64,000 bases of DNA from Escherichia coli (GTDB taxonomy: Bacteria; Pseudomonadota; Gammaproteobacteria; Enterobacterales; Enterobacteriaceae). The translations under genes and the position numbers were made by a program. Location: NCBI RefSeq assembly GCF_002854065.1, contig NZ_CP024147.1; one strand, 5' to 3'. The notes under the pieces are model-generated. The model saw only the letters and a program-made list of their open reading frames with translations, made no database searches and was not told the DNA's origin. How positions within the stretch are numbered: position 1 is the stretch's first letter; the number at the start of each line of letters is the position of its first letter. Shown here piece by piece: positions 16,938 to 17,050 of the stretch.

Positions 16938-17050
16938 GGTGGACTCCTGCGAGGTTGTCGATATCAGCACTCCATCACAGGAAAGTAAATGCAAAATGTC
17001 AGAAGCCGTTCATATTTGTCATATTGCGATTTTTCTTCACGGAGCGTGAT

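Follow-up and report, generated by a model that had tools for sequence, protein, structure and literature searches.

Which protein recognizes the two closely spaced copies of TCATATT in the divergent promoter region between a sugar operon and a hybrid kinase gene, and which of the two flanking genes does it serve? The initial annotation of the window (the whole 64-kb stretch of DNA that was analysed) had proposed an autoregulatory operator of the OmpR-family regulator encoded in the same genomic island. In the following, we weigh this proposal against published experiments, conservation across genera, and related binding sites.

The gap comprises 113 bp (16938-17050) and is bounded by the start codons of the ATPase gene (16937, minus strand) and of the kinase gene (17051, plus strand). 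Two copies of TCATATT in direct orientation on the plus strand, 9 bp apart from start to start, and a TGTCA at 16997-17001 are indeed present. Sequence statistics alone mark the repeat as only weakly unusual: an exact direct 7-mer repeat with a spacing of 7-12 bp arose in 511 (2.6%) of 20,000 shuffled versions of the gap with preserved dinucleotide composition, and the same class of repeat is found in 30 of the 566 tiles of 113 bp that make up the window (5.3%). TCATAT-N3-TCATAT without mismatch has a single occurrence in the 64 kb. We accept the repeat as real on the grounds of cross-genus conservation and published experiments.

The window is part of an Escherichia coli chromosome, in which an island between yjcS and yjdP/phn replaces the allose operon of K-12. 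Gene order and flanks (yjcS ... yjdP/phn) are shared with O157:H7 OI-167 (Z5684-Z5692), and the island is therefore OI-167. Its operon genes are named lmuX, Y, Z, I, A, and K according to PMC10128022. The product of lmvR is composed of a Response_reg domain (PF00072, 1.1e-25) and a Trans_reg_C winged-helix domain (PF00486, 1.7e-22); its amino-acid sequence is identical to the protein of O157:H7 EC4115, and XJ34 and EC4115 are annotated with the same protein accession. The two-component system was published twice, as riboflavin-responsive RbfS/RbfR by Liu et al. (PNAS 2022, PMC9860305), who reported 167 ChIP sites of RbfR, and as mannose/lyxose-responsive LmvK/LmvR with the operon lmuKAIZYX by Yang et al. 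(mBio 2023, PMC10128022). The signal is thus contested between the two groups.

Both papers describe the system as essentially confined to EHEC O157/O145/O55. Of the 5,426 complete E. coli genomes, 410-421 carry the island, among them isolates recovered from otter, pigeon, guinea fowl, pig, and wastewater. A GNAT-type N-acetyltransferase gene (19428-20060) lies between lmvK and yjdP; it is also found in XJ34 and is absent from the island of O157:H7 EC4115.

In the present strain, lmuX carries a 1-bp deletion in a G run near 15694 (15690-15700) relative to XJ34, O157:H7 EC4115, and Escherichia sp. E1V33. The frame ends after 439 instead of 506 residues, and Walker B of the second ATPase domain is lost. 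The deletion occurs in no other complete E. coli genome of the collection (best match 99.1%, one gap) and represents either a strain-specific mutation or a sequencing error. Judged from the truncated frame, the regulated transporter may be defective in this strain.

LmvR binding and the lmuX promoter

Direct evidence on the site comes from the experiments of Yang et al. in EDL933 (PMC10128022). The transcription start of lmuX was located by 5' RACE, LmvR shifted a 240-nt probe of the lmuX promoter, and DNase I footprinting revealed protection from -41 to -62, a region with ATATGA-N3-ATATGA; deletion of these 22 nt abolished LmvR binding. ChIP-seq placed LmvR summits at 5215274 (LB) and 5215275 (DMEM). 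Overexpression of lmvR increased lmuX 695-fold, and lmuXYZIAK was induced by mannose or lyxose in dependence on both lmvR and lmvK (PMC10128022).

These findings can be projected onto the window base by base. All 113 bp of the gap are identical to those of O157:H7 EC4115 and EDL933, and ATATGA-N3-ATATGA is the reverse complement of 17010-17024. The primers of the published probe map to 16929-17165, and the deletion primer edl5436-del-F matches 17013-17062. The ChIP-seq summits precede the lmuX start codon (5215205) by 69-70 bp, which corresponds to 17006/17007, the first bases of CCGTTCATAT. Given the identical gap, the matching primer, the identical LmvR, and the position of the summits, the published results carry over to the window.

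Hence, with all experiments stemming from EDL933, we hold it very probable that LmvR (RbfR) binds the repeats as the operator of the OI-167 lmuX promoter and thereby activates lmuXYZIAK; as such, the feature is not new, having been established in 2023 by direct experiments on the identical sequence. According to the proposed mechanism, LmvK (RbfS) would sense mannose or lyxose (riboflavin according to the other group), and phosphorylated LmvR (RbfR) would bind the two half-sites as a head-to-tail dimer directly upstream of a weak -35 element, on the lmuX strand, thereby activating the genes of the mannose/lyxose transporter and the catabolic enzymes. The interpretation of the initial annotation is partly supported. 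Its regulator family and kind of site were right, binding being established by gel shift, footprint, and ChIP-seq on the identical EDL933 sequence; its primary target, autoregulation, was wrong, as the regulator activates lmuXYZIAK.

The gap contains two half-sites in direct, head-to-tail orientation, as in operators of the OmpR/PhoB family. All 39 loci show a period of 9 bp, which differs from the approximately 10-11 bp of this family. The spacing had been considered a reason for doubting that the regulator binds. It is indeed atypical, but the doubt did not hold, since the published site is ATATGA-N3-ATATGA and the 9-bp-period site was nonetheless bound in the published experiments in EDL933.

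The features of the locus are compiled in the table below.

Table. Features of the island and of the lmuX-lmvK gap (positions refer to the window)
Feature	Position	Strand	Remarks
lmvR (= rbfR, Z5684), OmpR/PhoB-family response regulator	10172..10879	+	repeat-binding protein (shown in EDL933)
lmuY permease, lmuZ binding protein, lmuI D-lyxose/D-mannose isomerase, lmuA class II aldolase, lmuK PfkB kinase	10876..15421	-	
lmuX, sugar ABC transporter ATPase	15417..16937	-	first gene of the regulated operon; frameshifted here
lmuX ribosome-binding site AGGAG	16944..16948	-	invariant in 39 sequences
Range obligatory for the RACE-mapped lmuX transcription start	16962..16969	-	-41 to -62 must hold both repeats
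Probable lmuX -10 hexamer, TGTGAT	16974..16979	-	positions conserved 0.97-1.00
Probable lmuX -35 hexamer, CTGACA	16997..17002	-	contains the annotated TGTCA; invariant block 16996-17002 (ATGTCAG); position agrees with the -41 boundary of the footprint
Approximate LmvR-protected region (-41 to -62)	17005..17027	-	published footprint; ends vary with the exact transcription start
Box A, CCGTTCATAT	17006-17015		within the LmvR-protected region
Box B, TTTGTCATAT	17015-17024		within the LmvR-protected region
First TCATATT, core of LmvR half-site A (lmuX strand: ATATGA)	17010..17016	+	inside invariant block 17008-17023; published footprint
Candidate extended -10 of a putative lmvK promoter, TGTCATATT	17017..17025	+	overlaps half-site B
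Second TCATATT, core of LmvR half-site B	17019..17025	+	across genera kept only as TCATA(T/G)T
lmvK (= rbfS, Z5692), hybrid histidine kinase	17051..19315	+	98% identical to the O157:H7 protein

CTGACA and TGTGAT, which are separated by a spacer of 17 nt on the lmuX strand, are the probable -35 and -10 hexamers of lmuX. A -10 element at TGTGAT predicts a transcription start near 16967, inside the range required by the footprint. Consequently, the TGTCA that had been regarded as a further repeat-like element is most likely part of the lmuX -35 element rather than a third half-site. Scans for consensus promoters and terminators gave no hit in the gap or in the region upstream of lmvR; the empty promoter scan says little, since the lmuX promoter is weak and activator-dependent.

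Two further candidate sites were discarded. A CRP site at approximately 16963-16978 fits in one half only (TCACA), and its position is unsuited to the lmuX promoter. GCTGTTCATGG at 16929-16939 matches a tor box at 8 of 10 positions over the lmuX start codon; its positions 16929-16933 vary between genera, and the match is probably due to chance.

Conservation of the site across genera

An orthologue scan with one genome per species revealed about 40 loci, all with the same gene order. The named genera are Escherichia, Citrobacter, Enterobacter, Leclercia, Lelliottia, Phytobacter, Pseudenterobacter, Huaxiibacter, and Silvania, the island thus being found with conserved gene order in eight genera besides Escherichia (loci L003-L043). 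From these, 39 distinct orthologous sequences were aligned over the stretch 16878-17072.

GTTCATATTTGTCATA, the 16 nt at 17008-17023, is invariant in the 39 distinct sequences from nine named genera, and it is found exactly once per locus in 41 loci. Within 16878-17072, only three invariant blocks of at least 5 bases exist, namely the ribosome-binding site of lmuX, ATGTCAG, and GTTCATATTTGTCATA, while among the adjacent first codons of lmuX merely 3 of 20 third-codon positions are invariant. A scan of 16700-17300 against Rfam revealed no RNA family, and the conserved block is thus not a known leader or riboswitch.

The conserved unit does not coincide with the repeat. At position 17024 the majority base reaches a fraction of 0.67; the end of the second copy is unconserved, with TCATAGT in most genera. 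Accordingly, it is GTTCATATTTGTCATA that is conserved, not TCATATT twice, and the perfect repeat is specific to the version of Escherichia and Citrobacter. GTTCATATTTGTCATA is preceded by CC, CT, or TC. Following TGTCATA, Escherichia and most Citrobacter continue with TTGCGATTTTTCTTCA and then directly with the kinase start, and the Enterobacter-type loci with GTTATGAATAG, an inverted tor-like box. The conservation of GTTCATATTTGTCATA tracks the lmuX side of the gap.

In the Enterobacter-type loci (L014-L043), the second half-site is followed by this third, inverted tor-like box, TTATGAATAG. Many Enterobacter-type species also carry GC-rich palindromic repeats between the operator and the kinase start, which extend this gap to 100-200 bp. 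One copy, L027 (CACSKA010000007.1), is labelled Chryseobacterium sp. 18061 and yet represents a typical enterobacterial island copy, whose lmuX start/promoter stretch is nearly identical to a contig labelled Citrobacter sp. 18056. The assembly is probably mislabelled or contaminated.

The upstream region of lmvR shows a different pattern. There, the non-Escherichia loci (L005-L043) share the blocks ATGCAGCTTCTATGCCATG and TGACGAAAAACAG...CGTCAAAATTGACGTGTCGA, which are absent from the AT-rich and unrelated E. coli version. Apparently, the lmvR promoter was replaced on entry of the island into Escherichia.

The kinase gene and autoregulation

The strongest competing explanation holds that the site is mainly autoregulatory, with the regulator controlling lmvK or the two-component system itself. 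In its favor, the boxes precede the lmvK start codon by only 26-45 bp and share positions with TGTCATATT, a plausible extended -10 element whose TG (17017-18), A2 (17021), and T6 (17025) are invariant and which ends 26 bp upstream of the start codon. Upon lmvR overexpression, lmvK falls to 0.26-fold (adjusted p 2.7e-16) and is one of only two genes that decrease (PMC10128022), an effect that is undiscussed in that paper; upon addition of riboflavin, z5692 (lmvK) rises 3-fold (PMC9860305). However, these two reported effects are opposite in direction, so that the evidence on lmvK conflicts, and neither mannose nor lyxose induces lmvK (PMC10128022). The strong, direct, and demonstrated effect is that on lmuX, and autoregulation of lmvR was reported to act through its own promoter (PMC10128022). 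Overall, we regard a mainly autoregulatory role as possible but not probable.

A search for the same repeat upstream of the regulator gene, as suggested by the initial annotation, was negative: over 9882-10171, no match with two or fewer mismatches was found, and the best one deviates at 3 of 12 positions and is generically AT-rich. Cross-species footprinting of this region was uninformative, because the Escherichia sequence bears no relation to its counterparts in the other genera.

The position of TGTCATATT suggests how LmvR could affect the kinase gene. With LmvR on its site and RNA polymerase on the divergent lmuX promoter, the TGTCATATT element would presumably be blocked, and the bound site would then occlude the candidate lmvK promoter as well. 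Such blocking would explain the 4-fold fall of lmvK; interference from the 695-fold induced lmuX promoter explains it equally well. Any effect of LmvR on the kinase gene would be negative. An lmvK promoter downstream of the boxes, in analogy to torC, was considered and rejected, as the stretch from box B to the start codon is too short in E. coli (25 bp).

Combining these observations with the kinship to the tor box described below, we tentatively propose an extended role of the operator, of which we remain rather doubtful: a two-way switch, in which LmvR would turn lmuX on and the kinase promoter off, and a mutual recognition of sites, in which LmvR and TorR may cross-bind. If true, repression of lmvK by bound LmvR would constitute negative feedback on the sensor, and cross-binding would couple mannose use to TMAO respiration. 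Hints are given by the 0.26-fold level of lmvK and by a ChIP summit inside tor box 1. Neither the switch nor the cross-binding is discussed in PMC9860305 or PMC10128022.

Kinship to the tor box and comparison with known sites

TorR is the closest characterized paralogue of LmvR (36% identity), and the recognition helices of both proteins are nearly identical (RTIDVLIMRLRRKI in LmvR, RTVDVLIRRLRHKL in TorR). With the tor boxes defined according to PMC9239176, the torR-torC gap of K-12 contains CTGTTCATAT three times and CCGTTCATCC once. Box A of the island matches CTGTTCATAT at 9 of 10 positions and box B at 7 of 10, and many Enterobacter-type loci show a perfect CTGTTCATAT (10/10) at box A. 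A 12-mer, GTTCATATTTGn, is common to the island site and the region of tor box 4, and apart from one additional base, which accounts for the spacing of 10 bp versus 9 bp, this region, CTGTTCATATTTGCTCAT, is essentially the same as the island's CyGTTCATATTTG-TCAT. From this resemblance we infer that the island site is an evolutionary relative of the tor box of TorR.

The likeness extends to the arrangement of the loci. At both, a paralogous regulator of the OmpR/PhoB family acts on direct repeats with a GTTCATAT core between divergent genes. However, the TCAT cores are spaced by 10 bp at tor (boxes 1-2, and box 4 to the following box-like TTGCTCATTA) and by 9 bp at the island, so that the tandem 10-bp period toward the activated gene, which characterizes tor boxes, is not found at the island site. 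Four boxes at tor stand against two at the island (with the third, inverted one in Enterobacter-type loci). The tor boxes point toward the activated torC, whereas those of the island are directed toward lmvK, away from the activated lmuX. Finally, the divergent gene encodes the regulator, torR, at the tor locus and the kinase, lmvK, at the island.

These relations raise the question of whether the site is, or is also, a target of TorR, which would link the island to the regulator of TMAO respiration. The matches of box A, the common 12-mer, and the similarity of the two proteins point in this direction, as does a ChIP-seq peak of LmvR in LB, whose summit (1323806) falls within EDL933 tor box 1 and 27 bp upstream of torR. 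The corresponding positions are 49-68 of the EDL933 torR-torC gap (L053) and 4974-4993 of the K-12 locus (L002). The peak is suggestive only, its enrichment being low (1.87-fold) and obtained with an overexpressed tagged protein in one of two media. Taken together with the 9-bp instead of 10-bp spacing at tor boxes 1-2 and the orientation opposite to that at torC, this makes a role as TorR target appear unlikely. The text of PMC10128022 is silent on the tor box 1 peak, which is listed in its ChIP-seq table.

The remaining explanation, that the repeat arose by chance in AT-rich promoter DNA (e.g., as a -10-like CATATT occurring twice) and has no dedicated regulator, carries practically no weight: the frequency of close 7-mer repeats in shuffles and tiles and the empty promoter scan would agree with it, but the site is where the footprint, the gel shift with the deletion, and the ChIP summit coincide, and the 16-nt block is invariant over nine named genera next to varying silent sites, so that published footprint and conservation already refute it.

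The site allows a horizontally acquired sensor system of EHEC to couple a gut sugar signal to metabolism, and LmvR also drives type III secretion genes. Since the operator was experimentally mapped in 2023, no new biology arises from the site itself. Our study adds its cross-genus invariance, the kinship to the tor box, a possible repression of the kinase gene, and the broken first regulated gene in this strain. The invariance of the operator over nine named genera indicates an old and widely shared sugar regulon rather than an invention of EHEC.

Beyond the tor boxes, three known sites allow a direct comparison. The footprint of RbfR in the ler (LEE1) promoter, TCTCACATAATTTATATCATT (PMC9860305), involves the same regulator and is likewise AT-rich with two CAT-containing cores; its similarity to the island site is weak, and its cores are spaced by about 12 bp as compared to 9. 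A different ler site, ATTTTA-N3-ATTAGA, was proposed by the mBio group (PMC10128022). As the ler sites of the two groups differ, any recognition rule for LmvR/RbfR is provisional.

The Pho box of PhoB, CTGTCATAWAWCTGTCAY, is composed of direct repeats with a TGTCA/GTTCA core adjacent to a weak -35 element. It is bound head-to-tail by a dimer of the winged-helix response regulator, replaces the -35 element, and points with transcription, at a period of 11 bp. The island site shares with it direct repeats with such a core by a weak -35 element and the head-to-tail mode of binding, but has a period of 9 instead of 11 bp, is located upstream of the -35 element, and is in reverse orientation.

The closest counterpart is the LmvR site of OI-167 in EDL933 (PMC10128022), with which the present locus shares the same 113 bp, the regulator protein, the neighbourhood, and the half-sites. 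In contrast to EDL933, the present host is not O157, an additional GNAT gene follows lmvK, the kinase is 98% rather than 100% identical, and lmuX is frameshifted.
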